From Trichoplax sp. H2 (taxonomy: Eukaryota): 64,000 nucleotides of DNA. How positions within the stretch are numbered: the stretch's first letter is position 1; each line of letters opens with the position of its first letter. Positions 24,654-64,000 of the stretch are shown piece after piece. The notes under the pieces were generated by a model, which made no database searches, was not told the origin of the DNA, and saw only the letters and a program-made list of their open reading frames with translations. The position numbers and the translations under genes were made by a program. Where the stretch lies: the NCBI GenBank assembly GCA_003344405.1, contig NOWV01000131.1:124001-188000 (forward strand), written 5' to 3'.

Positions 24654-24679
24654 GTGAAAGTGGATAGTGCACTAAAATG

Positions 24680-25165: not shown

Positions 25166-25378
25166 CCGTAAGCGCCATACTGCTGCAGTCTACGGTAATG
25201 AGAGATTGAGACTAGCAAGTCGAAATACACTACGGTTTGCGCGTACCTTCAGCTGGCTCATACTTGGAAGTACTTGGAAGTTGGAAACTCCATCGAGGCT
25301 AACATTTTAACTAAAACAGCGTTAATTTACTGCCAGCCATCGCCGATTATTTTGAAGGATAAAATAAAGGTCAAGAAA

Positions 25379-27440: not shown

Positions 27441-30318
<2,878 letters not shown>

Positions 30319-30451
30319 GATTATGTTACAGTAAGAACGATTAATAAGGAAAGATTTGAGTGTAAGCTGGAAAAATGGTGATTGGAAAAGATTTTATGGG
30401 ATTTTAAACGAGCGCTTTCTCACTGATTTCTATTCTGTTGGAGATGGAGTA

Positions 30452-38624: not shown

Positions 38625-41600
38625 TTACTGCATGAGATGTGGCTGGGTAAACGGTACATTCGAATTAAATTGATTTGCTGCTTGTGGATACATGTTATAT
38701 TGAGGTTGTGCGTTCATTTGAGGTAGTGGCTGTTGCTGGGTTGTGCCTCCTTGAGACGTAGAATATACCCCTTTTGGATCGATAGGTTGCTGTTGGTGAT
38801 AGTATTGTGATTGTTGCACTGGAAATTCATTAGACGTCCCAGATGACTGATTTCTACCGTAATGAATATGGTTTCGTATAAAAATGTTAAAAGCACTAAT
38901 ATCTTTTGCATTGACAAGAACTTGTATCTTTGCAGCAAAGCTAAACAGTATACTTACACTGGATTGTACATGTTCTAGAATAAAAAAATTGTATAAAAGT
39001 ATAAGTACTGAGAAAAGGAATTAAAAAGGAAAATTTGTTGCTTTTCTAAGTGTCGTATATACAGTACCTGTTGCGATTGAGTAGTTTGCGGCTGTTGATT
39101 CAATCCCTGCATCATTGGGTGCTGTATAATTTCCAATTTTACCCAAATCAAAAATATTTCAGTAATATAGATAGTAGTCTACTTTTGATTTAGAAGTTTC
39201 ACACCTATAATTAAAAATGACTTTGAAAATTTACCTGTTCCGGCGAAAAATTTTGTGGACCTGTAGGCTGTTGTTGGTAGCCAAGAGTATTAGGTTGCTG
39301 CGGAATCTACCAAGATACATATAGTATAATTATCCGTAAAGAATATGCTTGTAGGCCTTTTCTGTTATCGTAGAGGTTAGTGAATTTAAATACGCCAAAA
39401 ATAAGTTCAGTAAGGATAACATACCATATGCTGTTGCGGTACAGGCTGCTGAGGTACAGGTTGCTGAGGTACTTGTTGTTGAGGTACTTGTTGTTGAGGT
39501 ACTGGATTGTTGAGGTATGGATTGCTGAGGTAAAGGTTGCTGAGGTACAAGTTGCTGAGGTGAAGATTGTTGAGGTAGAGGTTGCTGGATTGGTGCCATC
39601 CTTTGATTATCTTGCAAACGGTTGGATTGGAAGTGCTGCTGTGACATCTCTGTAAATATAAATGTAAACATTGCATTAACGAAATGGAAATTTTTCTCAA
39701 ATTAAAATAAGGACAAGAGAAAAGTACCAGGTTGTAAGCCTGCTGCAGAATAAGCTGCGTAGATAGAACTATATCGTGGCCGCTCTTGCATCAATCTATT
39801 AATATGAAAAGTAATATCAAAATTTTTTAGTTATTCGAATAACATCGAAAAAGCAATAGTTCATTTAGGTCAAGTCTTACTTTTGATAAAGAGCAAGAGT
39901 TTCTTCAAATTGATTTTTTAAAGTATTTACTTCTTGATCTTTACTATTGGTAATAATAATATAAAAATAGTGTAAATATTTAATTGAAACAAAAATAAGT
40001 TACTGTACAAGGTATAAAGACTCACGTTTCCAGGCGCTCTAATTTGTTAGTCATTTGATACTTCATTCGATTACACGTATCTATAAAATGATATGATTGC
40101 GCTTGTATTAAGTAAAAATGAGTATTTACCTATCTAACGGAAACATTTTAAGTTAAATTCCTTCAACCTTCTAAGTCAATAAGTTCTTGAGTATCTGCAT
40201 TTACAGTTATATCAGCCTTTCCAAATATCTCAAGTGTGATATCTATTTTTTCCTAAAACGATTGCAGACATTAAAAATACGTTTTTGTGGGTGATAATTA
40301 CTTTTAACTATAAATAGAAAATAACTTCTGCAAATAAATGTGATCTCAGCTTATGATTTTATTTCATACTTCGTCAATTTGAACTTCTTTATATTCGTCC
40401 ATTGACGGTTCTATTAGTAAAATTCAATATATTGTACTTAAAGTAGTAATAATACTATATCACAATTTTAAATGTTGTCGCTAGATACAAACGTTTTGCC
40501 TCTCCAAGACCATTTTGTACTTCAGATTCCTCTACTACTTCCGTCTCTAATTCCTGATGTACCTCATACTTGGGTACTTAACACCACAGGCAAAAAGTTA
40601 GTATCGTAAAAGGATGTCATAAAATTATATGTTGTTATAGAGATGAGACCGAGTAAAATTGTTAATAAACCTGGTTCATTGAGATCGGAAGTAACAAAAT
40701 TTGACGGAAATAGTCCAGACCCATGTGGAGTCTCTCCCTTCCACCAGTTGGGGTCGCTATTATATCAACGTATGAAACAGAATTATTGCATGAAGTAACC
40801 TAATCTCATACATTCAAATTGCTAGTAATAGACTTCATTGTGCTATACTACCTATCATCAATGATAGAAATGATGTCACCAGCTTTAAAAGTTAACTCGT
40901 TATCTTCAGCGGCCTCGAAATCGTATAATGCAAGAACTTTACGTCGTTCAAGTTCCTATAATATAGATATACATCCAACCCATTAATTTCTTATGGCCAT
41001 TAGTAACATAGTAATGCACGCGCATTAGATCTATATTTGATACTGAAAAATAATACATGGGCTACAACTTACCTTCCTAAGTGACTTAGGAGAAGGTGGT
41101 TTAACTACAGGGTAAATACTTGATGTCGAAGTCTAATTTAGAATAGTTAAAATAGAAGTTAGGTAAGAAACTAAATGTCATATTATAAATTCATTTTACC
41201 TGAGAATAAGTTGCAGGAGTACTAGTATTAACCGTCGTAGAATGAGAAGAATGGGATGCACCAGTTTTATCTGCATCTCTTAAAGACATTTCAATTGCTG
41301 ATATAATCGATTGAAAGAATAGATATCTTTTAATGACAAATTAAATATATTTTACTAAGATGTAGAACTAAATATAGTTGAAATCTACTATCGCATGTAA
41401 CGTGGTGTCATTTGTACCTCTAGCAAGATCTTCGTCCTCTTGTAGTGCAACTCTATCGCTACTAGGTTGATTCTTATTTGATGTAGAAGTGAAGTTCGGC
41501 GATTCAGTAGGATTGGAAGAGGCTGCTCCCCCAGGTACAATTTCAGGTGTAAAAGCAGGAAACTCAACACCTTCATTCTTTAAGCTATTGTAAAGTGTTG

Positions 41601-43050
41601 GTATTAACCTATGATTGAAATAGATATTGAACATGGGTTAATCCAATCTACAAGTCGAAATCTATTACAAATACCGAACTAATGTAAATAGTATTCATGT
41701 TGATTTCAATGAGAAGCTGTTGGAAGAATTGTAACAGTAGTTTAAAACAATAATAAATCAAGGTTGTATTTCAATACTATATAGTGTACTGTACTGTGTA
41801 TGAAGTCCAATTATTTTTAAAAAGCGACCTATTATAAGTAGTATTTCCTTACGTCACTTTAGGATCATCTTTAAGCATATGAGCCCATTTCTGTAATAGT
41901 TCTTTCATCTTGTTGCCAACAGCAGCATTGGAATGCTATGAATTATATATAATTGATATCCGTGAATCATAGTTTAGCAATTTAATTGATTGTGTAAGTA
42001 TAAACAATATGATCATCAAATTATTTCAGGAGAAATTGGAAAGACTACTTGGGAAATGGTATACAGCAAATGAATTGTCATTGAGCATTGGATTTTTAGA
42101 AAGGTGTTCTATGCATTGTAGAAAAAGTAGGATATCATTTTACTTACTTTTTGTATGATATTTCGTATTTCCAATGACAATGGCCTAGTACAAATTTCCA
42201 AATGGAATATTTGGCCACAGTTGTTCATACAAGCATCAAGAAGCTAAATAAGCGGAAGAGGATTACATTATGACTTGTCTAGGTACAGGATTTTAATTTT
42301 AGGACATGGATTATCCTCCATGGCTATTACAAATGCAGTGATAATCAAGTTGATAGCGAATTAGTACTGTAAACTAGTGTACTCGCATATTACATTTTCG
42401 ATTGTGCATCTTGTCATGCAAACAATGTCAAGGTAATCTCTGTACGCGTATTTTATATCCATCAAGACTCTAGCACTGATGGTCACAATTATTAAGCAAG
42501 CAATTGATCTGTTTCTTTTACCGTTAATGCTTGTATAGCAACGTGAGGAATTTTATGATTAACTCTTTTCATGATCGATTTAAGGCATTCTTTTGGTCTA
42601 CCAATAAAAACAGGAACGATATCATTGGAAATATTGAACAAAGCTCATACTTGTTATCATCAGAGCAATTTGTACAACAACAATCATAAAAAAAAATCAA
42701 TTTCTTCTACGTTAACAGCCAGTTATTGCTTTTCGTTGATATTGGTTAGCATTAGTCTTACCCATTTGCAGTACGGCCAACACGATCACAAATTTCCATA
42801 ATCAGAGACCAATCTTCAGAAGTATTGGTTTCATTGGTAACCTTATCTATAAGAAAAGAATATCCAAAGCACAATATTAACATGAACAGGCAAGATTGAT
42901 TTTCTCTACAATCTACTGGTTACTATTGCAGAATTCCAATCCATTTCTTTTTATTAATACCACTCCATCGACAACTAAAATACACTTATTCTCCTATCTT
43001 GACTAACCTACGTCGGCATCGAACGTATTATTGGAAGAAAATAGAGGCAT
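38625..43050 (-). CDS. STAM: Signal transducing adapter molecule (ESCRT-0): VHS-UIM-SH3-GAT with a Q/P-rich tail
   Basis: [32 protein letters not shown] (VHS), [14 protein letters not shown] (UIM), [21 protein letters not shown]...DPNWWKG...GLFPSNFV (SH3). Includes a 17-nt exon at 38958-38974. Confidence 0.93.
39430..39592 (-). repeat. Coding 15-bp tandem repeat (PQQxx pentapeptide) in the STAM tail
   Basis: Repeated TG(C/T)TGAGGTA.. units encoding PQQ(P/Q/S/L)(V/L/I/S). Confidence 0.85.
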
Positions 43051-43261
43051 TTTGGCATCAAAAATGGTGGCTGCTTTGTGAAATTTTAACCAACTCGAAT
43101 CGTTGACTTTGACTGACTGAAGTGGTACCGACAGGGGCGATTGATTACGTCGTTTTTGACGACGACGGTGTCTTGTACCAGGGACGCAATGGCTAGGCTG
43201 GTGTAATAGCAATGGGAAGAGTCATGTTTGAGTGATGATGGTCGCACAGTCGATTCTAGAA

Positions 43262-43370
43262 CACTACAGTACATGGTACAGTCACATGTGCAGTACTGTG
43301 CACTGTACACTGTACTGTACAGTACAGTATAGTACCATTAAACGCTTACAAGTACAGTACTGTACAGTAT
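43262..43370. repeat. TACAG/TACTG array at the STAM promoter
   Basis: CACTGTACACTGTACTGTACAGTACAGTA and similar units about 200-300 bp upstream of the STAM ATG. Confidence 0.75.
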
Positions 43371-45351
43371 AGCCTGAGTCATGTTGGCAGGCCAAGACCA
43401 AGACTTTGTAAGCAAATGATGTCATCGTTATATTTATATTTATTTACTAGCCTACAGCTCGCTAAAATGCGAGCGATAGAATTCTTACACCTAAAATAGT
43501 GCACAACCAAGTATATATTGTATCCAATTATAATGGTGTCAGAGGGTCAGACAGGTTCGATAATACAAACTTGATCGTATACTGTAAAAATAGACAACCG
43601 ATATTTTAACATAGATAGATAGGATATTTCAAAATTGTTTTCCACTCATCTAGTCATCATGGATGACATGGATTGTCTCGTTGACATTTTAAATGGCTGA
43701 AATTATGAACAGGCTGCAGTTGGTTGATAGCAAACCTAAGCATAAACATTCAATTTTCATTCTTATAATATCCTATCTTACTGTAAGTCATAGACTACAA
43801 TAACTTTACCTCAAGCTTAGTACAATATAGAGGACTGCAGCGCTGATTTGCATAACAGTTATTAATCAAGTGCTGCTAATAGCAATATGTAATCAATGAA
43901 TACATGTATCATGCATCGTATTAGGCTTGTTTGCCACTGCAAAGTGTTTATACTGCAACGAGAAACGGCCAACTCAAATAGGAAATGATTATTTCCTAAC
44001 CTAACTCCTTACGCACGCTATGTTATGCCATAGACTTCCAATTTTGTCAACAATACTACTGAAAGAAAGTGCTCGATTTACAGCTAATGCAGTATGCTAC
44101 AGTACAGCACAATGGAGAGTGTACTGTCAACAAGGAGGGACGCTTGTCGTCGCCTCACGGACACTACAGCGGACAGACACCACTCCAATCTTACTGTACT
44201 GTTCTGTCTTGTATTGTCTGTCCATCAGTCCTACTACTACTGTATCACAGTCAACATGGATGGATACCATAGATACTATCGTACAGTATGCACAAAAAAA
44301 AATTTCATTCCAGAATCTCTAAGCATCATTTTCAAGCAGCATTTCACGTCTTGGCAAATAAGGATAGAAATTGATACGTACAGTATAATGTTATTGTATC
44401 AATGCACTAGTTACCCTTTTCCCGCTTTTATTATCGTTATTATACCTACACTGATGCACATTATAATAAATAAATGATATTTGAAGGTGAACAGTTTCAT
44501 AGATTGTTTTTAATTTATTTATCTCCACTAGCTAACAAAGTTTATTACGCTTTGCTTTGGGCAACATGCCCTTATATACTGTATATGTTACAGTGTACAG
44601 TAGTCTGTAGTACAATGCATAATTGTCAGTATCTATTTATAAACAAACTAATATACTGGATGTTTTTGATTTCTGGATTCTGTTACTTGAGTGTGTGACA
44701 TGATATAGCTCTGCACATTGAACACCCGTATAGCAGTTATTAATGATGAATTGATTACAGTATCCTAAAGTAAAAAAAAACTGCAACATACAGTACACCA
44801 TTGTATAGTATAGTACTTGTTCATACAGTACCAGTGACATGTACGCTTATTTAGTACAAGTAATATTGTGTTGAGCATCAAAGGGCTTTAATTAATGAAT
44901 CGATCTGTTACTGTAAACTGTAGATTACTGCATAACTGCAGCGTGGATGGTCCATGACGTTGGATATCAAGTACCTACATTTAGTACAAAAACGACTTTT
45001 TTACCTCCAGTAAAATACTTTTATTGTAATAATAACAGCTTCAAGATGACAGTTAATATGACAAGGCCGCACGATGCAAGTACTCTCTATACAGTACATG
45101 GTAGTTTTTCATCTTAAACTCATTCACCAAATTTTACTTGTGTATGACTAGCGATGAAAACAAAATATGTAATTGCGCCGACGAAAATTTTTGTACATAT
45201 TTACGTACAAGCTTGAGAACAATGTTAATGTCATTGATGATAATCAAAATGTATGTAAAGATAATAAATCGATGATTAATTAGTGTAATCGGTAAGTAAT
45301 TACTCAGATAGGATTATTTTCAACCATCTAAAGGATATTACGTGATCAATT

Positions 45352-46361
45352 TTAAGCTTCCACGTTGATTAATTCTTCTGGAACAGCGTTCTTCGGATGT
45401 TTATTAACAAAGTGTTGTTTGTACGTCTTTGGGTCGGGCATTTGGCACTAAATAGAAGATTGAATACAGATTCGATAATGAATTAGTTTTAGCTACATCA
45501 TTGTCGTTGATTACATTGTACACTTTACAGTATACTGTGCGTACTACTACTATCCGCTGCTATGTTGTACTGTACCTCATTGCTCTTGCACTATTGCAAT
45601 AAGATGGGTACATTAGAAGGCTAGACAGCAGTAGAAGTTAGATACAGTACTGAATTAATCACTCGGCGAATGAATATGCTATAGTAATGTGATAATAATA
45701 TTATTCAGTTTGGTAAGTATTACTTACATAGAACTGTAAATTATAAAAATAACCGATATCATCCTCTAATTTCATTAACTGTTCAGGATAACTTTACTTA
45801 TCTTTGGTAAATCTACATAACTCCATATACGCACATATAGTGTCAAATCAAAAAGTACCAACTGTAAATCATGATCATTAGAAACTGAATAATGGTGGAA
45901 TTGAAAGCAAACTACTTGTACTGTAGATTAGTAAGAGATTGTAACAGTATACTGTAGTGTAATCCTTAACATCAACAACTGCAGAAAGTTCCGTTTACTG
46001 CTGCCAATATAGTACAATTAGTACTACAATATAGTCAATAGCACATGATAGTGTATCAGAAAGCATTTACTAATCTATATCCCATCAAAAGAGATGTGAT
46101 TAAATTGATGAGATGTACAATTATACAGTACATGCAATGGTAAATAAACTCTTGTTGTCAACTACTACTGCAGTGGGATAGCAACCTACTCGTATTGAAT
46201 ATTCTATGCAATACAGTGTGCCATACCTTACAAACAGTGCACGTATGAACTAGGGCCTTTTTAGCGGCTGTCTTCTGATCATGTCCATGTGCTTTGGCTA
46301 TTTTGGCTTTCTTTTCTGCATTTTTTTTCTGTGATTGAATCTTTTGATGTCCACGAGCCAT
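45352..46361 (-). CDS. ZNF706: Zinc finger protein 706 (4F5/SERF-like N-terminus + C2H2)
   Basis: Exons 46361-46227 and 45447-45352 give MARGHQKIQSQKKNAEKKAK...HTCTVCK|CQMPDPKTYKQHFVNKHPKNAVPEELINVEA*. Confidence 0.93.
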
Positions 46362-47482
46362 CGCTTTTATGACAACGTAACCGATAAAACAGTGTAGCCA
46401 AAATTGGGTGAGCAAATACCAACCTTATAACTTGTCCAAGTGGTTGAACTCAAGACTTTCTGCTTTCGATAGATACTCGGTACGGTCGAACTTTTATTAC
46501 CTTAGCAATAACAGAGTAAAAACGGTAGCGCTATCGAAGTCATAGTGTATTATGTCAGGTCTACGTACAGTACACCAGGCTCATTGTAAGTCAACCCGAA
46601 ACCCGATTCGAGGGCGGGATTCGGGTTTAAAAATTGCTATTGTAATACAGCGTTTGCATAGCGATTGCACCATTTCGGGTTAGAAAATCAACAATTTGAT
46701 CGGGTTTTGATCGGTTTCGGATTTCGTTTTCACTCCACTTGGTTACAGTATAAAGTGCGCTTTGTCTTTACAGTACTGTACACTGTACACTGTACCGTCA
46801 GGGACTGTCCGGGACGGCCGGGCCGAGTGAGTTGTCATTTTTTTCTGAAATCTAGGACACTACTCTATGGTTCATACCAGTGTACGACGTACTGTATCAG
46901 TCCTTCTATCATCATACAGTTAACTAGCGAAAATGATGTCGTTAACAAAGCCCTCGTTTTTAGTGTCAGCCTACTACCGATTCTTTACCAAGTATGACAT
47001 CCTTTTTGCAAGACTGCCAAACCGGACTCAGTGTAGTAGTACGATGCAATACTAGTACAGTATAGTAGGCTTTGATCATAATTATAAATCAGTTATATAT
47101 ACATGTATATACTGTACATTATTATGGGTATCCAAGGTCTCGTCCTTTTATATAAATTTCACCATCAAACGGTCGAAAAAATGATCTACTTCCTGACTTC
47201 GTAAAAGATTCTATGACACTTTACTGTACATCATGGAGGTAAATAATAAATAAAAAAAAAACCCTAACCCTTTTACCTCAGTACTGTACTGTACTGTACA
47301 GTACGATAGTTACAGTACTGTACAGTATGTTACGGACTGTGAGTGTGACTGAGTAGCATACTGTACTATACTGACTTAACGAGAAGTCCGCACGTCCGCA
47401 CATCTGTCGTAATAATGAAGCATAGAGCGCATGACAGTATTGCTCATGCTCACTGACAAAGCTGGAGCGAAAGGCTTGATCG

Positions 47483-47491
47483 TTCTTTCTT
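47483..47491 (+). promoter_or_regulatory. TCT / 5'-TOP polypyrimidine initiator of RPS8
   Basis: TTCTTTCTT about 25-30 nt upstream of ATG 47515, the usual position in ribosomal protein genes. Confidence 0.5.
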
Positions 47492-47514
47492 GTCGCTACC
47501 TGTGGTCCAGCAAG

Positions 47515-49927
47515 ATGGGTATGTAGCCGACTCCTCTCCATGCTTTTATATTGCTCTAATATCACATCCATCGGTTACTTTTTCAGACATTTACATAACT
47601 TTTATGCTCGCTGTAGTCACTTTGAATCATCTTTTCTACTTAGTTTAATTTTTCCAACAGTCTTTTTGTAAATTTTTTCCGTTTTATTGATTAGCATTTG
47701 GTAAGAGTGTGCTCTTCGTTGCTATACTACCATTTCACTGAAACTATCCTGTACAATTATATGAATCACCCAGGACATGCTTTTTTGTACAATTTGCTAT
47801 GGCTATGAACAACATGCTCATAGTAATAATCGCGGAAGAGGGATTAGAGATACGTTCAGTTGACTACTCATGATCGTTTTTAGCAAGTAGCTCATTCTCC
47901 ATCACATTACAGTAAAGTGGCCTTATTCCCGTAATGATTCGTATAGAGTACAGGATTAGTTGGCGATACGACTAGTCGAGATTGGATTAGCTCGCTAATT
48001 CGTAGTATATGGAGACTTGGATGTCTATCTCTCTTGCGGTCGAACTTTGCCACTACAGTACTGCATAATTGACAGTAGTTGCAGTTTCTTTAAACAGGAT
48101 GCACGTTGATCATATATTTTGATGATAGTAAATGATGGTGTCCGATATGATGGATAAGTTTGACCTTGTGCATGTCTTAGTAATATTGAGTAAAGAGCAA
48201 ATCTATTTCTGCAGACTTGAGTGTTTTAGCAATCCGTTACACGCTAATTTAATGTCATATTCAAATACTGATGACGATAGGGTTATTAATTTTTATTGTA
48301 TGATTAACGCAGGTATTTCTCGTGACTCTTGGCATAAAAGGCGAAGTACCAGTGGGCGAAAAGCCCCTCTTCGTAAGAAGAGAAAGTTCGAATTGGGCCG
48401 ACAGCCTGCTATGACGAAGGTTTGTCGATCTGTTATTTAATTATCAACTCTTGATAAAAGCAAATAATAATCGATAGAACTACTCTGGTATTAAATTATC
48501 CTTCGTAGTATTGGGTATAAAATTTCTACTATATGCTTAACCGTAACTCCCTACGATTTACGACGCTAGTTGGCTAGAGTATTTTTTAGCATGCCTTGAC
48601 TATGCTATTTTTTAGCTTCCTGCGGTTGCAGTGTAAAAATATCATGCATATTGGCCTTATTAGCAGAAGCAATCGACGCAGTACTAATTCTGAAATGATA
48701 AAATACTGGTATTTTACCTTACAATTTAAATAGTTGAAAATAATAAATGCTACTTAATTTTTACGTGAAGTGAAGTGTTACACCAAATTGTTAGAATCAA
48801 GGGTAGGGAATACTGTAGAAAGTAATTTGATTGAGGTATCTATCTCTCGCAAGGCGTAATTTTTAGAGTATTTTCATGCTTCACGGATCACTTGTCGTTA
48901 TTATAAGTTTCAGTCTTGATTGTGCTTTTTTTTTACAAAGCTATTTCGTCCTTTTTAATTGTCATACTACTTTTATTCTTATTAGATGGGAGCTAAGCGT
49001 ATTCATACCGTACGAACTCGCGGTGGAAATTACAAATACCGCGCTCTACGTTTAGAAACTGGAAATTATTCATGGGCTTCGGAAGGTAAGTACTTACTAA
49101 AAGGACAGTCTTATTTAAATTCCTTGTCTTTTACTGAGCATAGAAAGACCAGTATATCTGACAAGATTGAAATTGTTAATGTAGCCATCAGCCGCAAAAG
49201 CCGTATATTAGATGTTGTCTACAATGCTAGCAACAACGAACTTGTTCGTACAAAGACTTTGGTTAAGAATTGCATTGTTCAAATCGACGCTACTCCTTTT
49301 AAGCAATGGTATTTATTAATGCTTACTTACGTACTATGTCATATATTTTATCCTAGATAATAAGTAGGCTGTCAATAGAGTGAATTTTAACTCGTCTAAG
49401 ATAATAATGATGCGCCCTACAAGATAATTTCAAGTACTAACTACCTTTATTCGACTTAACAGGTATGAGAGCCACTACAATATCCCTATCGTACGTAAAA
49501 AGTCGAAACAACAGCAGGTATTACTACGATGCTACTTCAATTTGTATACGCGTACATGTAACATTTAAGAACCCGCCATTCATATGCCTATGTAGACTAC
49601 GGAAGAAACTGAAGAGATAAGACGATCTAAGAGGGTAGAAAAGAAATTGGAAGCCAGAAAACGTTTTGCCAAGATCGCCTCTGCCTTAGAAGAACAATTC
49701 GGTACAGGACGTATTTATGGTAAGACATGTAGTACGATCAAATTATGAAATAATGTACACAAGTTAATACTGCCATTACTTGATAACATAACATTAATCC
49801 AATACAACCTATTGTAGCTTGTGTTGCGTCCAGACCTGGCCAGTGCGGTCGTTGCGATGGTTATATACTGGAAGGAAAAGAATTGGAATTCTATTTAAAG
49901 AAAATCAGATCGAAGAAAACAAAGTAA
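47515..49927 (+). CDS. RPS8: 40S ribosomal protein S8 (eS8)
   Basis: ATGG|GT at 47515-47518, then exons 48313-48419, 48986-49085, 49185-49308, 49463-49517, 49596-49719 and 49818-49927. Protein: [16 protein letters not shown]...[14 protein letters not shown]...[32 protein letters not shown]. Confidence 0.97.
47909..48060 (+). ncRNA. Candidate structured intronic RNA (H/ACA-like 3' domain) in RPS8 intron 1
   Basis: ACAGTA (H-like), then stem AGTGGC/GCCACT, an internal loop, stem CCGTAA/TTGCGG and internal hairpins; ACA lies 15 nt from the upper stem. Confidence 0.3.
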
Positions 49928-50825
49928 AATGTAGAACGTTTCTGTTCTTTCATTCTGGTAGATCTTTGTGTATATTTTACAAGTGGAATGTTGGAAATAA
50001 AATACTATTGACATAAAGCTGTTATGTTTGATTTCGATCTCCTACATTTGACGATGTGAGAAATCAACCCTGTGATAATTCGCTTTGCTAAGAAATCGCC
50101 TATGCAGCTTAGTTCTGCCTCAAGCTTTAGATTTTGCTGGAGCAATGTTATAATACAGAAGCTAGATAAAGTTCCAATTTATTGAGGCTGTACTAATCCT
50201 ATTAGAATGGTTTTACGCATTCTAAATTGTACAATCGAAATTACTGGTGCATGACACAAGAAGCAATTAAATTATGCGCTCTACATTCATAACAGGATAA
50301 TTAATATACTTCTTAGCTATTATATGAAGTTTAAGATTGCAAGTGCAATCTTTCAGTGTCGTAATCACAAACCTTACTATTAATTGATCATTTAATCTCG
50401 AACTATGGCAATCAAGCATCTACTGCACTATGTGCACAGGTTTCATGAGTAACTGCCTTTTCGCTATGACTTTATAGCGAGCCATAATCGATTGCGTGTA
50501 TTAGCAGTAATCATTTTGCATGGATAATACCAATGTTTACAAGAAATCGTCCTTATTTAGCGACACAAATCGCACAGAATAAGTATAAAATTGAATTTGC
50601 AGAGCAATAAGTTCGAGATATGCTAACGTGTTTCACTAACAATTTCCAATTACTGTAGCAATGTATTAACTGACGATCATCTACCTTATTTTGAATATTA
50701 TCTATTGGTACGAGCATTTTAGCAGCCTGAAACTGAATTATTTCACTTCGGTAATCGTATTCATGAAAGCATAATTGCCAATTCAGAAATATTAACGTAC
50801 ATGAAAGAGCCTTTCAAACTCTGAA

Positions 50826-52115
50826 TTAATTGCTAGATTCAGAAATGTTACAAGTAACTACTTTATGCCTGCCATATTTTCGCCAGTTAAAAGCATACCG
50901 CACAATTGTAAAAATTCCGAAGTAAAGAGAGCGAATATGATTAACTGTTAAAGATCGGATAAGAGCTAACTGCTCTTTAACTGTCAACACTGGAATAGAT
51001 GTTGAATTTATATTATTTCGAATGTTGGCTATAATGTCGAATAGCAGACCAAGTAATTTTTTTACACGCAACGCTTCTAAAACAAATACAATACCGCGAA
51101 AGGAATGGATACCCAAATTCAGTAAATATTTTAGTAATCGCCACAAATTACTTAAAGCGTCGGTTGTCTCTTCATCAATTAGAATCGTAAACAATAACTG
51201 CTCAATAAAGTCGTAAATTGAGATCCATGGAAAGGCAGAAGTAAACAATATACACACCGGTTTAAAGCATTTAAGCCAATAGTGGGTAAATCTCAACAGA
51301 GTCTGGTCCACGAAGGAAATGAAATAATCAAAGTAATGGCCCATAGCAATAACTAAAGGTTGTAATGAAACTTTAATAAAAGAGACATTCTTATATAATT
51401 GCCATGTCGCCCAAACTACCGAGAAAAGTGTATAGAGTACTACAATAAACTGTAGAAATTGACGAAATCTTTTACTGTAGAGAGCAATAGGGATATAGAT
51501 GATCCAGTGAGGTAAACCTTGTTGAACTATTCCAAGATTAACAACTCTCTTTTCTTGGATGAAGTCAATTTGCGTATTTTGACTATTAAAAATCAGATCA
51601 CTGGAATAACGATCACTTTGGGCATCAACATCTTTATCTTTGAATAACTTCTGTTTGGATTGTTGATGTTTCTCAGCTCGATAAATATTTTTACCAGGTA
51701 GTGAGTGATCGCTTATACTGTTAACGTCTTCAAAGATATTAGAAAAGCGATGCATACTGTGCAGAGACTCATCATTATTACAACGGCAGATTTGATGGTA
51801 CTTTTCTTCCCGGAAGCGAATGAACTGACTTAAAGAATCTCGCAACGTACCACAGTATTGAACATCTAACCTAGCAATAATAACGTCGGTCGATAAATAA
51901 TTCCGGCGAGAGCTACATTGGCCTGCGATAATAGAATTAAAAATAAATGGAGTCGATTTATGAAACTCGGCGATTAATATCAAGTCTAACGAATCCAACA
52001 TTTTTTCCTTGAAATTGGAATCCAATTTCAAGTCGATAGCTGATAGGCAATCAAAGCCATAATAACCACTACAAAATTGGCGTTTCTTTCCATCGACCAT
52101 TCGGACTAATAGCAC
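50826..52115 (-). CDS. Uncharacterized multi-pass membrane protein; 429-codon uninterrupted ORF, true start uncertain (first ATG 52100; possible acceptor near 52115)
   Basis: Long open frame in AT-rich DNA, with hydrophobic segments GLPHWIIYIPIALYSKRFRQFLQFIVVLYTLFSVVWATWQLYKNV and further C-terminal hydrophobic stretches. Confidence 0.7.
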   Translation of the reverse strand: MLLVRMVDGKKRQFCSGYYGFDCLSAIDLKLDSNFKEKMLDSLDLILIAEFHKSTPFIFNSIIAGQCSSRRNYLSTDVIIARLDVQYCGTLRDSLSQFIRFREEKYHQICRCNNDESLHSMHRFSNIFEDVNSISDHSLPGKNIYRAEKHQQSKQKLFKDKDVDAQSDRYSSDLIFNSQNTQIDFIQEKRVVNLGIVQQGLPHWIIYIPIALYSKRFRQFLQFIVVLYTLFSVVWATWQLYKNVSFIKVSLQPLVIAMGHYFDYFISFVDQTLLRFTHYWLKCFKPVCILFTSAFPWISIYDFIEQLLFTILIDEETTDALSNLWRLLKYLLNLGIHSFRGIVFVLEALRVKKLLGLLFDIIANIRNNINSTSIPVLTVKEQLALIRSLTVNHIRSLYFGIFTIVRYAFNWRKYGRHKVVTCNISESSN

Positions 52116-52758
52116 TAGTGGTCAAACGATTATTACGTAGCAAGCTGGAGTTGATTAGCAAACCATTACCTACTGTATATTGTAGTGGATTAATAATCGC
52201 TAGTCGTATCGACTGCAAGACCAGAACAAGTTTTGCAGGCCGTAGAAATAGGCAAGGAATTAGCTATAGTAACAGATAGGAGAGCGTTGGCTTGAAACGA
52301 CACTTACTAATAATTTGCTACTGAATCCAGTACTAGTGTTATACGGAAATACTTATATATCTTCAAAGTAGGGTAGTAGGTGTGCAGATAATTAAGAATC
52401 ATTATTACGATTAGGTTGAGGCATTTATCCACCATTATGCTCATCACAAGAATTTATGTTTTATTTGTCTAATAAAAGAGAGTAGATCGGTATAACATCG
52501 ACATATTACGATTCAAGAATGCAAAATCATTGCTATCAATATACGACATAATCATCAAGTGAAAGTGTTAGAATTCAAAAGAATATTAAACAGCTTTGAA
52601 AATGGAAGGAAACCGTAATGATAACCCTAACTTTTTATTTACATATTATTTTCACTAAAAATTGTAGTACTGTACCAGTTTACAAATAGCTGGACTTTTA
52701 TCCTAGATTTGCTATAGTAAGTATGTAATCTAAGGCGATAATATACTATCAAACAAGA

Positions 52759-55700
52759 CTAAGGTTCCGGAGGAGGTGGCGGAGGTGGTGGTGGTGCCTG
52801 TTGCTATAGAGTAAGTACAGTAAATTCACACATCAGAAGTTTCAACATGTCAGTTTAACGACAAATAATAGTTGTAATAATCTTTTACCCATGGAGCGGT
52901 ACCAGGAGGTGGAGGAGCAGTGACATTTTTTGAGTCAAATCCAGGCGCTGCAGCACCAGGTTGAAGCCAAGGCGCACCACCTGGATTAGGAACATTGGCT
53001 AGAATTAAATTAAAAGAGTAACCTCTAAGTATTTAATTAAAGTTATAATTGTCCAATAACTACGATTTATAGAGGTATGGTATTATTAAATTTAGAAACA
53101 GTGATGATAAAATTCAATGCGGTTGTAGCAAAAACTTAAAAAGATTTCATCTAATCTTCATAAATCAGCATCTGAACCTTGTTGCCAAGGAGCTGATGGT
53201 ACAGCCGATGGATTTGTGTCCGAAGCAGCTAAACCAGGAGGAGGGGGGTTACCGCTTGGTACTGAAGAGAATAATGTACTGTATATTATTTTCATTTGAT
53301 AAAGACAATAAATAAGTAAACGATTATGTAGCAAATGTTGATCTACCTGATGGACCATGTGGTAAAGGTTGTTGCATTGGTGGATATCCCCAAGGTTGAT
53401 AACCACCCCACGTAGGTTGAGGCATCATCGGATATCCATACGGAGGGAAAGCACCAAAACCGGGAGGACCAGGGGCCTAAGAAAAAGGTTGTAGTTATGA
53501 TTATATTAGAGAAAATATTCTTAAAATGGATAATATCGTGTCATATTAATATGTCTATATTATGAGAAAGAATTGTACCATAGGCATATTTGTCATAGGC
53601 ATCCCTGAAGCTGGAGGCATTGGATGAGGACCACCACTAATGGGTACAGATGTCGGAGCAGGAGCAGGAGCAGGAGCTGGAGGTGCAGGAACTGCTGTGG
53701 TAGAAGTAGTAGTTGCAATAGTAGCAGTTGTGATTACGGTATTAAGATTAGTAGCAGGAGTAGATGTCGCTGCACTAGTAGTATCTGGTTTCTTAGTAAT
53801 TTCTTCAGGGGCAGAGCCTTCACCCAGTTCGGCCATCAATGATAGGTACTGTGATAATCAATTACCATCAAGTTACGCCTTTCATTAGTGGTTAAGTTGG
53901 ATATCATTGCAAGTAAACTAATAACTACCAAATCGAGAGTATCACTACTTCAACAGATGGCCAATGTAACTATAATAATCGAGTACGTCACTAAACTTAA
54001 AGGTACCCATACCTCATTATCCATTTTTTCTCTATCGATAACAGGTTCTACTGGCTCGTTACCACCTTCTTCGTTACTTCTAATTAAATCAGTAAGGAAG
54101 TGTAACATATCTAGAATATCGTGTAATATATTCTTTATAGAATAATAAAACATATTTATTTCTTACTTTTGTTTACAATCAGTTGCTACATGGCCAATAC
54201 CACCGCATATGGTACATGCGATAGTACTTGTAAGATTTCGCTGCTCTGGGCATTCCCAGTAACGATGCCCAGTGGCTCCACAATTTCGACATCTATGTTG
54301 AATCATAAATAGAGTCAGGGATAATCAAACAATAAGTTTAGCTTGTAAGAAGTTATGCATACCTATTCAAATCTTCTTCTCTCAGTGTGCCATTTAATTG
54401 AGCTAGTTCACGAAGTTGCATACGTTTTAGATCATTTTGTCCTTCCGGAGAATCGATACCGCACTGAATTATTTCATGTATCTGTAGTTAGATAATAAAA
54501 TTTAGTTACAATGATAGTAGTGATTCTAGTAGTATATCTCCCAATCAGAAGTATGGTCAAAAATTTCGCAGACATATTGACGTAAAATATGTATCACTAC
54601 TGGTTCATGACTACCTTGTTAACGGCAATCTTAACACCGTCAGCGGTTGAGCCAGTAATCAGTGCATGTAAAGCTTCATCTTCACCAGAATTCGGCTACA
54701 ACAATAAATAAGTAGAATAAGTACATAATATCTAATTTATTCTCTAACGATTACTGAATCATAATAAAGCCTCTAAAACTTGTTTGTCTTAACCAAGTGC
54801 ATGTTAAGTCATTGCATCATACTGTAACAGTCTTGATTGCCTTACATATAATTGTGCTTTTCCTTCCTTTGTTGAGCCTTTTCCTCGTATCATTATCTTA
54901 GAGTTGCTCTAAAACAAATAAAGAAAATAGAAAACATTAAGCAGAAAGTAAGTCGTATAATTAGGCATATGTGGTGGTAATATTACTTCTTTTTCTATTC
55001 TCTTCAAGGTGTTTCCACTATGAAAAAGTAATATTGAATACATGATTAGTCCAAACAATAAAAGATTGACAACCTCAGCAAAGTCATTAATTTAATAGTC
55101 TTATTAAAGTTACCGAGGTCCAATAAGTAGTCCGATAAAGTTAATAGTAGGATAGTCATCCTGTGGGATCATCACCTTATCTTGGACCTTAATAGCCGGC
55201 GGCCTGAATGAATGATGTGAATCAGTTAATAAAATGAGGTCAAAATTTTGTACTTGAATCATATTGTATTGAAATCAATAAAATGTGTCATTACTAAAAT
55301 AGATTTATACCGATAATCTACAGGAGGTTTATAATTTGAATTCAAGGCCGATAATTCTTGTATGGCACTATGCCTTTCTTCTTCGAGTTTCTTCCTTACA
55401 CGAAATTCTCTGGTATTTAATCTTTTACCATCATTACTATAAAGTGGTTCCGGCGACGGGGAACTGTTCATTCAATGAAGATTTTTCAATTGATTAAAAC
55501 AATTGATGCATTTCGTATTTCATAATAAAAAGGGATAAATAAGCGTTTAATTCTATTACCGATCTTCCGGGTTTTCCGGAATACCTAAATCGCCAGTTCT
55601 TAACATTTTCGTAACTTCTTCTATCCTATATTGTACTATAAGCATGTCGTAATAAGATAAGTATTTACGTCGTGGGTAAATATCCATGTCTAATCTGAAT

Positions 55701-57049
55701 AAACTGAAGGTATATCCAGCAAGCCATATTCTGATGTGTACTACCTTGTATTGTAGTATTATTTATCACATTAATACTCGATTGCGAAAGCAAAAACTAG
55801 CATGCCCTTTATGGAATAACATTATGTATGCATCTATATGCTACATTCATTGACGTAGAGGAGCAGTAAAACACTTCTAAAGTTCTAGACGTCCTCGATA
55901 ATATGTATCAAGGCACAATTAAACCAGATATGGGAGTAGGGTAGACATAATGTAGTAAGAATCATTTATTACAGATGTCCATTAATACTGTCACCAAAAT
56001 TTATGAATGAACTTAGAGATCATTCATACGCAAGCTGTATGCGTAAATGTAGGTTAACTTAGATAATGATGACTTTAGAATTAACAATGGTGTCAGACAT
56101 TCGCAGACATTACACCAGCTGCAAATTCCCTTCAAATAATTTTAATGATAGCCATTATGTAGAAGTCTACCAACATGATCCTAAGTTATAGATGAGTACT
56201 AACTAAATAGAATGGTAAAGTTTTCAATCTGGAAATTCATCCATTACAATTTCACTTAGAATGTATTGGAAAGAGTAATAAAAGAGCGTATGCAATTTCA
56301 TTTGAACAACTCGAGCACTCTATTCTATCTACTCTTTTAATTTCAACGCTTTATTATGCAGCACGGTATGGCATATCATGGCAGTGAAGCGAATGATTAC
56401 TAGGATATTTGCTAGAACAACAACTAATCCGTAACTGGTCTTTCTACTTTGAGAGGGCATGAATAGAATGATATCATAACAAAGTAGTTGCACTTGTAGA
56501 ATGAGGTAGATAGGCCTATCGTATTGTACGGGTTGGAGTAAGTTGTAGAGAAATTTGGACAGATACTCACACAAGTATTGCTTTTTCTGATCCTCTGTAG
56601 CATTTGTCGGGATGACCGTGGGCATGCCTGGTAGAATACTTTTCGATTCTTCGGAAGCCCAACGACTTCTACGTTTTCTTTTTCTTTGAGCGTCTCCAGT
56701 TCCTAATATTATAATAATAGAAAAGAGATGATTTCAAGATGGGGCCCACTCGTTATAGTATAGTGTGATCCATCTGAAGCTATAGCATTGTCAATGATCT
56801 CAATCAAGTTACTGTACAATTTGGCAAACATTGCAACTATTTGTGCCTGCAATGGATTGGAGCATAGATCAACAATTTCAATGAAAGAATCATTTCTTGA
56901 CTGTGTATCAAGTATCGCCTAGAGTCGATAGCTATACAAGGGACTACAAGACTGGTGTCGTCTCCATTGTACATACCATCATCTGCTGAACGCTTGTACT
57001 GGATATCGTCGTTATTATTACCATTGCTACCTTGGATAACAGCGCTCAT
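52759..57049 (-). CDS. SF1: Splicing factor 1 / branchpoint-binding protein (KH-QUA2, two CCHC knuckles, Pro-rich tail)
   Basis: RKRRSRW (ULM), [36 protein letters not shown] (KH), [18 protein letters not shown] (QUA2), [14 protein letters not shown] and [14 protein letters not shown]; ends [10 protein letters not shown]. Confidence 0.95.
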
Positions 57050-57295
57050 TTTCTTGACTTCTTCAATGTGTGTAAGGCGTCTCAATAGAACTCTAGTTCT
57101 GCTACTTGCAGGACGATAAATAAAGACAGGAATCGATGTCGATTCTGTCAAGAAATTAAACTACTTGACCAGTGAGAAAGAGAAGGAAACCTTTCTTTCA
57201 CTTTGCACTTCACTCTTTTGAACACATGAAGTTGGAAGTAGAGTCGCGCGTGCAGTCAGGCGCGCAGTCCGTCACACAGGCCTTTTTCCACTGAC

Positions 57296-58045
57296 GTCCA
57301 ACTAGACTCACCACGGCCAGTCTGTCATTATACAGTACTATATAGTTGCTACCATGTTGCAGCAGCACCATGGTCGCCACCAGACCTACAGTACTGTACT
57401 GTAGGGACCAAAAAGAAAGAACGCAGAGTGCACAGTACGTACTGTACAGTAAAGTGTACAGAATTTCACCTTAAAATGACGAAAACTTGTACTGTACACT
57501 GACTTCTTGCTACCAGCTGAAACGCTTAACAGTGTATGACATACAGACTGACAGAGGGGACTCTACTTCGATTGACTTCCAAGTAGACTTACCACGGTCA
57601 CATTGTATTATACTATATAGTTGCGTCAGGTCTAGTTGCTACCATGGTTAGCACCAGCACCATGGTCGCCACCAGACCTAGGGACCAAAAAGAAAGAACG
57701 CACAGTGTACAGTACGTACATGTACTGTAATATACAGTATGACATACTGTACTGTATACAGACTGACGTCGAGGTAGTGTCACCACTGTCAGTCTGTAAT
57801 TTTATTGTACTATACAGTACAGTATTGTTGCTACCATTTGTGTGCCATGGTAGCTCACCAGGCCTAGGGACCAAAAAGAGAAGAACGCACAGTGCACAGT
57901 ACGTACAGTACACTGTAGTGTACAGTACTGTACTGTACTGTACAGTACAGAGAAAATTTCACCCCCAAATAATTAAAACGTGTACTGTACTGTACTGTTT
58001 ACACGGACTTCTTGCTACCACTTGAAACGCATTACAGTGTACTGT
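57296..58045. repeat. Three degenerate tandem copies (about 200-280 bp) in the SF1-CMC1 divergent promoter
   Basis: Shared anchors GTTGCTACCAT...CCATGGT...CCAG(A/G)CCTA..GGGACCAAAAAGA.AGAACGCA at about 57345-57425, 57635-57700 and 57827-57890. Copies 1 and 3 also share GACTTCTTGCTACCA..TGAAACGC. Confidence 0.9.
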
Positions 58046-58131
58046 TCTGAGTGTATTCGTTCTTTTCTCGAGTTGGAAATCGGAGGGGGAAGGGAGGGAA
58101 TTTTCTCTTCGAGTACTGTAGTCTCTGGTAA

Positions 58132-58154
58132 TAGGGTTAGGGTTAGGGTTAGGG
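58132..58154 (+). repeat. Short interstitial telomeric repeat (TTAGGG)~4
   Basis: TAGGGTTAGGGTTAGGGTTAGGG. Confidence 0.85.
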
Positions 58155-58495
58155 TCAGTAGAACTTAGTACACAGTAGTCATTAAGCCTACAGTGTACAG
58201 TTCGAAACTGAAGTACTGTACGTACTGTTCTGTGATATCATTGGCTATGGAGATGACTACAGTGCAAAGTCTTTCTTTACAGTGTACAGTAAGCATAGTA
58301 CTGTAAAATTAGAAGTACTGAACTGTGTCCACTACTACAGTACAGTACTGTACGGTATGGTCCCTACTGTATACTGTACACTGTACACTATACCCGCACA
58401 GTACTGGACTGCACTGTCACCAACTTGTCACCCAGTTGAGCACAGATTCGTGATACGGTAGTGGAAGTGGGAGAGCAGCGGAAAGAGATTGCAAA

Positions 58496-59511
58496 ATGCC
58501 TTTAAAACCGACTGATGATAGTGAAGATCGAAGTTTAAGACATGTTGAAGAAAATGTACTAATTCCTCAGATAATAAGAAAGCGTGCTGCTAAGCTATGC
58601 AACGTCCAAGCTCAAAGTACGTAAGTTAGGACGAGCATGATGAAGTCAATGGATGCAAGGGTTGGTTGCACGTCTTTTACTCAGCTTGCAAGATCATGCT
58701 TAGTCGTATTCGTTATTATCATATCGCCACTGCCTTGTTATAAACTCTATTTTACAGTTATGATCAACGGATTAATAAGCAAGCGAGACTAAAGGACGTT
58801 GCAATACACGCGTATTCGTTATTTCGTATAATAAACAGTTTCGCAGACTTGTATACGAGTATCAAACATTCACTCAGCAATAGACCAATATGTGTCATAG
58901 CTACAGATGGGCCCTTATTCTAGCCATCAACTCATATGCTTCTATTATGTTCATGGATATTTTGTAGAATTTTTCGATTGCTGTAAGGGCAGAACTGTTT
59001 CAGCAGCATGGGCTTGCCGAGCTGAAGTGAAGATGATGAACGACTGTTTAGCCAAGTAGTAAGTACATTATATTCCACTATCTCCTATTGATGCTACTAC
59101 TTCTAGGAGATAAAGTTGCTGTTCATTTTCACCTTCCGTCCTAGGAAATCAACATATTACTCTTAGTAATTCATAATCTGATACATTGTACTAAAAAATA
59201 GGTCATGGTAATTCTTGGTGTATAAATGATTATTAAGTCATTATTTCACAAACATCTCAAAATGTAGAGATCTTCTTGCTAACATCTAAACTGCCACTTT
59301 TGTGTAAGCTAATTTAGCTGGTATTTGATCAATTTATGATAGCTACACAGATCCAGCTTTCTTCGAGGAGTGTAAAGAAAGTTATCTAGCAGAAAGAGCG
59401 CACTTTCGAAAGACAGGAGTTAATCCAAACAGAGTTAACAGGAGACGTGGTCGGACAAGTAGCTTTGAATCTCCCGAACAAGAAAATACAGAACAGCTTA
59501 GTTCTCAATAA
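58496..59511 (+). CDS. CMC1: COX assembly mitochondrial protein (twin CX9C)
   Basis: Exons 58496-58616, 58968-59058 and 59343-59511 give MPLKPTDDSEDRSLRHVEENVLIPQIIRKRAAKLCNVQAQKFFDCCKGRTVSAAWACRAEVKMMNDCLAKYYTDPAFFEECKESYLAERAHFRKTG...*. Confidence 0.92.
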
Positions 59512-61078: not shown

Positions 61079-63077
61079 TTAAAATTTAGTTATGGTCTGA
61101 TTTTTACGACGAGATAACATAACAGCAAGTATAACTGTTGTCAACATGAAGACACCACACAATACGCTCAATGCAACAGTAGCGATAAATAAACGTTGTG
61201 AGATAACTTGAGATAAGGCAGTCTCAGATGAGATCGTATTCTGCTCAGTCGAAATAAATGAAGCAGTAATCGGCCTGTTTGTGGAGTCATTTGTAGGGTA
61301 ATTTGTAGGTTTACTTGTAGAGCATGGGCGTGAATTTGCTGTAAGAGTAGGCAGGTATTTGTTCCAAAATTCCAATGCAGCTGGTTTGTAATCATTGCCA
61401 GCAGTCGTGGAATTGGAAATCATGATGTATCCTTTCTTGATCAAGTCATACTGTGGCCATTGTGGCGAAGTTAATAGATCATTAGGGTTTCTAAATATTT
61501 AAAAGAAAAATAAGAAAAAATTTAATAAATCGTACTTAATGAATTCAATTGCTATATCAAACCTAAGGGATTATCGATATAGCTCACCCTGTCTTGATGA
61601 AATTTGCCCACATACGCATGACTTTCTTGCTAACAGTTTGATCAATCCCAACAAATTTTTCCGGATACGAACTAGGTGGATTAATAGGATATCCAAACAC
61701 ATAAGAAATTTCTGAAGCGTGAGTAGCACCGTAATATTCTGGAAAGTAGATGGAATTAGCTGGACGTCGATTAAAAACATAAAAATAAGTCGGCAATCCT
61801 TGCTTAACATATTGATTTGCGCATCGTATAGTTGGCGCTAAAAATACAGCATCAGTATTAGCTATACCCATCTGTTCTCGGTTAGCTATTGGTGAGGTAA
61901 TATTATGCCAATCGCTATATTTATATATAATAGCATTAACTGCATTTTGACCAAAGCTTCCATAAGATGCTTGGGCTAGTTGTTTAAAAGTATTTCGGTC
62001 TATGCCATGTGGTAATCCGTTAAAACTATTGAAGGAAAGCGTTCCATCATCTTTAGTTATACCTGTTAAAACTTTTATCTTCTTATTAAACGAGTTATTA
62101 TTCAATAAGGTAACCGGATTATCTGGCAGTAATACCATATCGACAACTGGTTTAAAGGCAAAAAAGCTCGCTTTTAAGAGTATTAATTGAGCATTGAGTA
62201 ACTGTTCAGTTGATAATTCCTTAATACATGTAGAACTAAGCTGGGTGGAACTTCGACTACAATTCGTTACTTGCGCTAACAGATTAAACTGTGCTTGAAC
62301 TTGCAATAGCGTATAGCTTCCAATATCTAATAGTAATGGACCACTTTGTATAATTACTGCACGATAATATGGAAAGCTACTGGGCATGATAGTATGGTAA
62401 GCCACAGAGAATGCGCCAGCAGAATTACCAGCAATCGTTACTCTTTTTGGATCGCCACCAAATCGTTGAATATTTTTAGCTACCCATTTTAGAGCTAATT
62501 GCTGATCCAAGAGACCATTATTAGCCGCAAATTCTCGTTGCGTTCCACTTTCACCACTTGACATAAATCCAAAAATGCCTAACCTGTAATTTAATGTTAC
62601 AACAACAATATTCTCCGAAGCGGCTAGAGTTTGGCCTTGCCACCATGCCCCAGAACCTACAATTAATCGACCACCATGAATCCAGACCAGGACAGAGAGA
62701 TTGCCATCAACACTAGGCTCTGGCGTAAACACATTTAAATATAGGCAGTCTTCATTAATTTGAGATGATGAATCTTGTTGATCTAGCCAAGATATAGGTG
62801 TCTTTTGCGGGCAAGATGCTGAATATTGGCTAGCATTTTTAACACCAGTCCAATTCATACGCAATTCGTTTGGTGGTTGAAATCGCCTTTCATTAATAGG
62901 GGGCATAGCATAAGGTATGCCCCGATATATATAAATATCTTGTCCATATAAATTTACTATTGTTCCAATAACTTGTCCACGATCGGTGTTGACAACGATA
63001 TTACTTAAAGTAAAATTCGGCCAAAATAATACCAAAAGGAATGAACAAATGAAATAATGGATAGCAAAAAGTCTCAT
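61079..63077 (-). CDS. Type-B carboxylesterase/cholinesterase-family type I membrane protein (neuroligin/CEL-like), 2 exons
   Basis: Exons 63077-61588 and 61490-61079 (phase-2 intron; KTG|NPN). Signal peptide, GIPYAMPP, EDCLYLNVF, WIHGG, NYRLG, GNSAG, TKDDG and GATHASEI; then a S/T/P-rich stalk, a TM helix (LFIATVALSVLCGVFMLTTVILAVML) and the tail SRRKNQTITKF. Confidence 0.92.
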
Positions 63078-64000
63078 ATTGGAATCTCTAGTAGTAAGAA
63101 AGTTAAGGTTTAAAACTCAAATGATACATATAGACACTTTAAAGATTTTATTAATTAGCTAATAAGCTTTATCGAATTGTTTACCAATAAGATTCTTATT
63201 TCTACAAACAAATCCTTATAGATGATGGCGACAAGAGAGCCCTGGATTAGCTAAATGCCTAACATGATATTAACGGTTGATGCGTTAAGCTAAATGAAAT
63301 ATTACAGTCGTGAGCTACATAGACGTATTGGTAGTTGTGCAGAGTCATTAAAGTTCTTAATTTTAGCTTAATTAATTTCAGACTGGTTGATTATTCAAAA
63401 TAATGACGCAATTAATTTATGATAATGTTTGTTCATTTAAGTATTTATACGTTCTAGTGCTTAAAATTAAAACGGATGAAACGTGACATATTGGTAACTT
63501 ATTGAATCACAAAGCAACTTATGTATAATATCTACAAAACTTAACCATAGTCTAGTGTAGGAAGCTTAATTTAGGAAAATTATCTTATTGCATGAAACAT
63601 ATATTTTATTTATGCAGTAGTAACAATGTAATATTGATTTGTTGTAAGTCTAAATCTTATAGCTATGTCATTTTCTACGCCGGATTTCATTCTTAAGGCA
63701 AAATGCTCATAGTCGGTCGAAAAATACAGTTTTATCTAAAATAAATTCGTCAGAACGATGAAGCGCTCTAGCTAGAACCTACTCAGGTCTATTTTTACTC
63801 GTCTTCTTCCTTAGCTGTTTGAGGCATTCTCAGCAAGCAATTGATTATGGATCATTGATCTCACTTATCTTTATTCCTTTAATCTGAGTTTTATTTGGTA
63901 TTATTATATTAAAATTTGATCGTATAATTGCAAGCATCAATTATATGATTATTGCTACCAACGATTGATAGAATATGAGAAAATGACTTGCAAACAATCT

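Follow-up and report, generated by a model that had tools for sequence, protein, structure and literature searches.

The ACAGT repeat arrays of Trichoplax promoters are built from the heptamers TA-CAG-TA and TA-CTG-TA in both orientations, and the locus described here, where three tandem copies of one promoter segment carry different numbers of these units, raises the question of how such arrays are written. An earlier note on this DNA had taken the units for excision footprints of a Tc1/mariner element of the Sleeping Beauty (SB) type, and the arrays for the product of repeated insertion and excision at TA sites, each event creating a new TA target. We followed up this proposal in the window (the whole stretch of 64,000 nucleotides of Trichoplax sp. 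H2 that was analysed) and in further stretches of the assembly (G000), together 700 kb of non-redundant sequence or 0.7% of the genome, of which 460 kb were chosen by position and the remainder mostly for arrays or transposase hits.

The locus and its ACAGT arrays

ACAGT is the commonest microsatellite of Trichoplax and a promoter marker. It lies upstream of genes, housekeeping genes included, in a genome with 0.13% transposon DNA and no active element reported; the portion of that account used here counts perfect ACAGT repeats and proposes a binding-site role (Wang et al. 2010, PMC2871265). The arrays in the window are ACAGT pentamer repeats upstream of genes, and are the published microsatellite of Trichoplax adhaerens. 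Those considered here are flanked by two genes, one SF1-like (minus strand) and one CMC1-like (plus strand), and the region between them is likely a divergent housekeeping promoter. Further down the SF1-like gene is what we take, by eye, to be a KH-type motif, and the predicted start codon of the CMC1-like gene is likely at 58496. The landmarks of the region are:

56332..56733, minus strand: open frame with an early exon of the SF1-like gene, directed away from the region (Pfam SF1-HH, E 0.003, below cut-off)
57286..57536, plus strand: tandem copy 1 of the promoter segment (ends approximate)
57567..57760, plus strand: tandem copy 2, shorter (ends approximate)
57762..58041, plus strand: tandem copy 3, by alignment the most distant copy around site (a)
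58116..58400, no strand assigned: additional clusters of units in this intergenic region, towards CMC1
58132..58155, plus strand: four telomere-type TAGGGT repeats within the SF1/CMC1 intergenic region
58970..59056, plus strand: exon of the CMC1-like gene, directed away from the region (Pfam Cmc1, E 4e-6, over cut-off)
61584-63116, minus strand: single-frame carboxylesterase exon, member of a Trichoplax family, the frame 99% identical to a Trichoplax adhaerens protein

Other unit arrays in the window lie at 24060-25200, 30290-31140 and 43225-47400, and the array at 30500-30860 is likewise duplicated internally. An AACCCT-type stretch near window position 47255 resembles the TAGGGT repeats, and GC-rich GACGG/CCGG-type repeats, possibly the published placozoan loop-anchor motif, adjoin arrays at window 46790-46825, L026:6400-6800 and L064:1470-2060. 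A metagenome scan with the neighbouring esterase as query returned no placozoan contigs, and when contigs of four public runs were compared with 39200-59100 at 80% likeness, the stretch was swamped by the genome-wide arrays.

Three tandem copies and one polarised insertion

The letters and coordinates previously given for three sites that differ between the copies all proved correct on re-reading. The features concerned are:

57389..57403, no strand assigned: site (a), where a bare TA of copy 1 has received a three-unit insert of 15 bp; the TA is empty at 57679-57680 and 57865-57866
57333..57337, no strand assigned: site (b), occupied by CAGTA in copy 1; copy 2 has just the TA (57611), and copy 3 reads TTGTA at 57805-57809
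57815..57824, no strand assigned: site (c), where by alignment copy 3 alone carries two CAGTA units
57921..57937, plus strand: exact match to the 17-mer of filled site (a) within the copy-3 array, 534 bp from site (a)
57542..57798, no strand assigned: inverted pair 57542-57571 / 57769-57798 (30 nt, 87%) bounded by TA-CAG...CTG-TA, a local inverted piece of the tandem unit

At site (a), copy 1 reads TA-CAGTA-CTGTA-CTGTA (57387-57403) against a bare TA in copy 2 (57679) and copy 3 (57865); the insert ends share TA alone, and there is no adjacent unit. With the insert omitted, the columns around the site agree in 55 of 58 cases between copies 1 and 2, and in 47 of 67 between either of them and copy 3. 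Since copies 1 and 2 are sisters and the distant copy 3 is empty, a single insertion in copy 1 is parsimonious, and on this alignment site (a) is likely a gain in copy 1. The other two sites are less clean. Site (b) is filled in two of the three copies when TTGTA in copy 3, omitted by the earlier note, is counted, so that one deletion in copy 2 fits equally well as two insertions; site (c) is unpolarised because the only filled copy is the more distant one, and its flank is also altered (TAG to TTG). Both have a CTATA neighbour, one transition from CTGTA. The reading of all three sites as polarised insertions at bare TA without a neighbouring unit thus stands at (a), one site in three: (b) may be a deletion, (c) has no direction, and both have a neighbour one change away from a unit.

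The array at 57921..57937 is a possible local template for the insert at site (a), although with 109 occurrences in the 700 kb this 17-mer is common. A query made from a hypothetical filled copy-3 site gave 0 matches. The inverted pair at 57542-57798 was considered as a Tc1-type MITE and rejected: its terminal 13-mer has 16 matches, none of which continues alike outside the window.

Exact TA-anchored gains between duplicates

To place these sites in a wider spectrum, indels were tabulated in 218 duplicate pairs, made up of tandem paralogues and of near-identical pairs flanking assembly gaps, the latter inferred to be alleles, at loci picked partly for their arrays. Strictly clean indels were of 5 bp in 11 of 83 cases, with three of 4 bp and none of 6 bp. 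Ten of these eleven were TA to TA-CWG-TA, eight of the ten being non-tandem, and the eleventh was CCGTA. The predicted peak at 5 bp with CWG+TA at TA sites is therefore present, and de novo CAGTA/CTGTA units at bare TA are borne out both by these clean indels and by the polarised sites. With looser flanks, 33 of 248 indels were of the footprint type; six shared TA alone, eight were tandem copies, and 27 either shared at least three bases or were tandem. Length changes are thus not confined to copies of adjacent identical units, as they would be in a slippage microsatellite. The TA-anchored 5-base gains in this known repeat are a real and surprising mutational pattern.

Twelve sites were checked for polarity and 11 located. 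One copy was filled among 3, 4, 5 and 3 copies at four of the 11, two of these four having been picked by eye, and at these four the filled state is derived; apart from (a), there are three such bare-TA sites, each filled in a single copy out of three to five. The other sites were mixed in two cases (2/5 and 2/3 filled), 1:1 in three, and yielded the filled copy only in two. More than 200 bp from arrays, seven of eleven 5-bp indels were CWG or CGG units and none was another TA-NNN-TA, in aligned DNA where other TA-NNN-TA outnumber CWG by 323 to 61, which makes generic TA-to-TA deletion unlikely as an explanation.

Recent events are 11-fold denser near arrays, at 27 per 330 substitutions up to a distance of 200 bp and 6 per 797 beyond it; the six far events mostly lie in unit-rich DNA. 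Both this clustering and the small share of events with TA alone in common (6/33) are predicted equally by templated insertion. Gains at bare TA are sometimes three or four units long, the best-polarised sites included, and such inserts could not be left by one excision. For the 4-unit insert at C2:1,020,186, a second copy is absent from the 3 kb examined. No allele carrying a full element at the same TA was found among the 218 duplicate pairs.

Near-identical copies on either side of 20-N gaps (L032:11-930; L038:7158-9458; L143:1312-2104; L128) are likely alleles that the assembly left uncollapsed; their arrays differ by many units, and they offer an as yet unexploited source of indel spectra. 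In one member of a gap-flanking pair, a 51-bp AT-rich insert ends in TACAGT (G000 C2:108559-108609), and no source of it was found in the 700 kb sample.

Lone units have Tc1-like target flanks

Taken together, TA-CAG-TA and TA-CTG-TA are 4.8-fold as frequent as a second-order Markov model predicts (934 against 196 on both strands of 494 kb). Extrapolation from 460 kb, where 824 units were counted against 100 for the control, gives approximately 170,000 units genome-wide against 21,000, an excess of about 150,000. Where transposon DNA makes up about 0.13% of the genome, such a record is very large. Genome-wide there are 5,134 four-unit and 744 six-unit matches, overlaps included. The excess is not restricted to arrays: the 157 kb located more than 3 kb away from arrays contain 124 TACWGTA against 31 TAGWCTA, 35 ATCWGAT and 29 TACSGTA, a 4-fold excess of lone units that lies beyond the reach of slippage.

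The target motif listed for Tc1 and Sleeping Beauty is CAYA-TA-TRTG (PMC2577343 Table 1), and the lone units show a flank of this kind, modest in effect. Flanks ending in AYA are 2.06-fold over local TA controls (94/964 flanks) and those ending in CAYA 2.8-2.9-fold (18/964), in a test chosen after the position profile of the lone units had been viewed. The AYA bias persists where there are no repeats or half-units within 25 bp (51/538 against 466/10,190, p 4e-6), and GC-matched TA-xxx-TA controls are flat (34/610, p 0.33). The AYA signal is only 2-fold and could be a protein-binding preference. Left-right symmetry of the flanks was dropped as evidence, the motif being its own near reverse complement. 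TACAATA-class decay products of lone units were not in excess far from arrays (83 against 104 for the control, a small sample).

In a set of 1,009 spacers lying between two units, short ones were empty in 37 cases, CA/TG in 19, C/G in 15 and CG in 14, with AG/CT (3) and A/T (1) rarer. These short in-array spacers match a list of non-canonical SB footprints, as given in the part of that source drawn on here (10.1101/659086). The only discriminating contrast is CA/TG against AG/CT (19 against 3, p 0.0009), a bias that two-step microhomology routes could also yield.

Probable growth of arrays by copying of existing units

The arrays are not head-to-tail runs of identical units in one orientation, since 3,931 of the 5,134 four-unit matches are mixed, and the orientation of neighbouring units is near random (in 494 kb, 95 neighbours agree and 84 switch; in 700 kb, 503 of 882 agree). 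Nevertheless, pure four-unit runs make up 1,203 of the 5,134 genome-wide (23.4% against 12.5% expected), a 1.9-fold excess of the same orientation, and units that had already mutated are duplicated in tandem in gap-flanking pairs. Slippage thus contributes to array growth and is not the sole process. Gap-flanking copies that are 0.3-3.3% apart have arrays differing by many units, which means that the arrays are hypervariable and not conserved. Runs of the variant unit GAGTA, attributable to slippage of a mutated unit, were seen in the arrays of L100 (G000 C1:524400-525100) and L092.

Among single changes within units, 6/20 were flips of the central A/T, compared with 42/349 A/T transversions outside units, so that orientation can change without a new insertion. 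Mixed orientation as proof of independent insertions is thereby ruled out. In-place flips are predicted by quasi-palindrome template switching, which the part of the literature consulted documents in yeast (PMC5677150). The 7-bp units CAGTG/CACTG are 8-fold enriched and occur near arrays only, with 0 in the 157 kb more than 3 kb away, and 29 of 58 stand in the context expected of a 7-bp duplication. We considered them as a second, 5-base footprint class and rejected this in favour of 7-bp duplication, given their absence far from arrays.

Search for the transposon and its transposase

Family searches returned at least two DDE_3, at least four Tc3-type HTH and at least three pogo-type matches, the pogo-type genes lying on C276, C248 and C339; one of the three pogo-type loci was examined. 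Each Tc1/pogo-type locus examined is decayed or truncated, has a change at a catalytic position, or yields no detectable end pair. The mariner profile PF01359 gave no match, and its control was likewise silent. One locus has candidate ends of the appropriate kind:

L050:941-2501 (G000 C251), strand not given: decayed 1.56-kb Tc1 element with candidate TA-CAG ends, from a terminal inverted alignment

The best terminal inverted alignment of L050 starts with TA-CAG at both ends, 1.56 kb apart, and 9 of 300 shuffles were as good. No second full copy was found, and a 96-bp match at 99% reaching into the flank is likely an assembly overlap. The search for CAG...CTG-ended Tc1/mariner elements that the earlier note had called for thus produced this one decayed, weak candidate and no multi-copy family: the 700 kb, which is 0.7% of the genome, contains five candidate TA-CAG...CTG-TA pairs at three loci, namely the window's own pair, a single-locus foldback and an inverted pair around an assembly gap. 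Weak as they are, the ends of L050 mean that the lineage cannot be declared to be without a CAG-ended element.

The Tc1-type gene of L004/L049 (L004:1390-2520, G000 C323) has an intact DD34E triad, an intron and one in-frame stop, with no end pair detected; the intact relatives of the L049 Tc1 piece are three proteins at 52-53%, none named as placozoan. L005 (L005:886-1968) is an open frame of Tc1/IS630/pogo-type origin that lacks the first catalytic Asp. L148 (L148:46-1623) is a 525-aa pogo-type open frame with Glu at the expected position of the third Asp, and L051 and L052 are HTH-only. To judge from their sequences, L005, L051, L052 and L148 look domesticated and are candidate array-binding proteins.

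A 117-bp TA-CAGTG foldback on C1 was rejected as a MITE, its three matches all being one locus. At L070:2032-2263, about 230 bp of arrays fold back around a 117-bp perfect inverted core, at a single locus. Also seen were two families of dispersed repeats, 400-600 bp long and about 89% identical (L022:6146-6779; L039:3408-4842; L007:2448-3001; L008:6562-7095; L094:28-455).

Discussion

We give a probability of about 0.5 to a two-step origin, in which Tc1-type footprints seed the repeat and the arrays then grow by slippage, template switching and short templated insertion. In the first step, a Tc1-type element with CAG...CTG ends would insert at TA, duplicate the TA and excise, and repair of the 3-base overhangs would leave TA-CAG-TA or TA-CTG-TA. 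In the second, for which the sequence patterns are observed, existing units would be duplicated directly by slippage, inverted copying and in-place A/T flips would occur at GTAC palindromes, and short templated insertions would lengthen and scramble the array. Site (a) would then be one seed followed by two copying events, or one templated copy. The patterns in the sequence are exact TA-anchored gains, an excess of lone units, a flank bias, an excess of pure runs, and flips. The feature works like an SB footprint, and a transposon seed is plausible, if unproven. Footprint membership is not established, since no donor element, full allele or active enzyme came to light.

The strongest competitor dispenses with a transposon today: breaks or stalled forks at TA would be repaired by copying units from a nearby or contacting array through TA, GTA or GTAC microhomology, with slippage and quasi-palindrome switching besides. 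The 11-fold clustering of events near arrays, the 27 of 33 events that share at least three bases or are tandem, the multi-unit inserts at bare TA, the exact 17-mer template 534 bp from site (a), the 51-bp insert ending in TACAGT, the flips and the restriction of 7-bp units to arrays all accord with it. Template switching is documented in yeast (PMC5677150) and placozoan promoters contact one another in hubs (PMC12221973), in the portions of those papers relied on here. We nevertheless consider this account somewhat unlikely: it leaves unexplained why the unit is exactly the SB footprint, why lone units are in 4-fold excess far from arrays with Tc1-type flanks, and why CA/TG spacers exceed AG/CT, and the 4-unit insert at C2:1,020,186 has no second copy in the 3 kb examined.

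That each unit is a separate footprint, with every new TA re-targeted by an active or domesticated Tc1/pogo-type transposase in open promoters, as the earlier note had it, appears quite unlikely to us. It agrees with the near-random orientation of neighbours, the preserved TA register, the SB-like short spacers, the intact triad of L004/L049 and the 525-aa pogo-type frame, and a preference for open chromatin is reported of one Tc1 element, in the part of the source used (PMC7913693). None of the three outcomes that the earlier note had named as refuting it was observed. Unit-by-unit writing is not supported, given the excess of pure runs, the tandem indels and tandem duplication of mutated units, the in-place flips, the need for three hits at one TA and none at two paralogous TAs, and the failure to find a mobile substrate, either among the candidate pairs in 700 kb or as a second copy of L050. 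An unlikely proposal of our own is that a placozoan Tc1/pogo-derived enzyme continues, at a high rate, to leave TA-CAG-TA scars in open chromatin. The arrays would then be a record of accessibility that a transposase has written and keeps adding to, and the animal may have co-opted them as promoter or loop-anchor sequence.

Very improbable is a heptamer that is simply a selected protein-binding promoter motif, the indels being deletions from older arrays: its position upstream of genes (PMC2871265) and its recognition by a Trichoplax chromatin-folding model (PMC12817080), both as far as the parts of these papers used here go, the good reading of site (b) as a deletion and a possible binding preference behind the flank bias are set against hypervariable arrays, four sites polarised as gains and the continued need for a mutational source of an exact 5-base insert, function and origin being separate questions.

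The same repeat, in the same genus and the same position upstream of genes including housekeeping genes, is that of Wang et al. (2010); the portion of their account used here does not mention mixed orientation, TA-anchored gains or an origin (PMC2871265). The units resemble SB-type Tc1/mariner footprints in their 7-mers, which are identical and occur in both orientations, in the duplicated TA, in having the same short variants, and in a similar target flank around lone units. A known SB footprint, in contrast, marks the donor site of an identified element with a single scar, whereas the Trichoplax units number about 170,000, are stacked in arrays, include 7-bp units and multi-unit inserts, and have no active element known. 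A placozoan promoter-hub motif found in 'Mutator' terminal repeats likewise marks housekeeping promoters and loop anchors and has a proposed transposon link (Kim et al. 2025, PMC12221973); it differs in that, in the parts of the reports drawn on, it is given as ACGG with ACAGT listed separately (PMC12817080), and the link is to Mutator ends and not to excision scars (PMC12221973). Quasi-palindrome correction and templated insertion predict flips, inverted copies and microhomology-bounded inserts within arrays (PMC5677150), but do not account for one fixed unit at lone TA sites that have Tc1-type flanks.

No footprint origin for the ACAGT repeat was found in the literature searched, subscription journals lying outside the search. 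The repeat itself is known; new here are the target-flank signature, the candidate fossil element L050 and the limits on unit-by-unit writing. The claim that scars seed the repeat is directly checkable with available placozoan genomes and reads. If it holds, cut-and-paste activity that has since vanished left about 150,000 traces in a nearly transposon-free genome, and the source of a promoter repeat would be the leavings of transposons and not their bodies.
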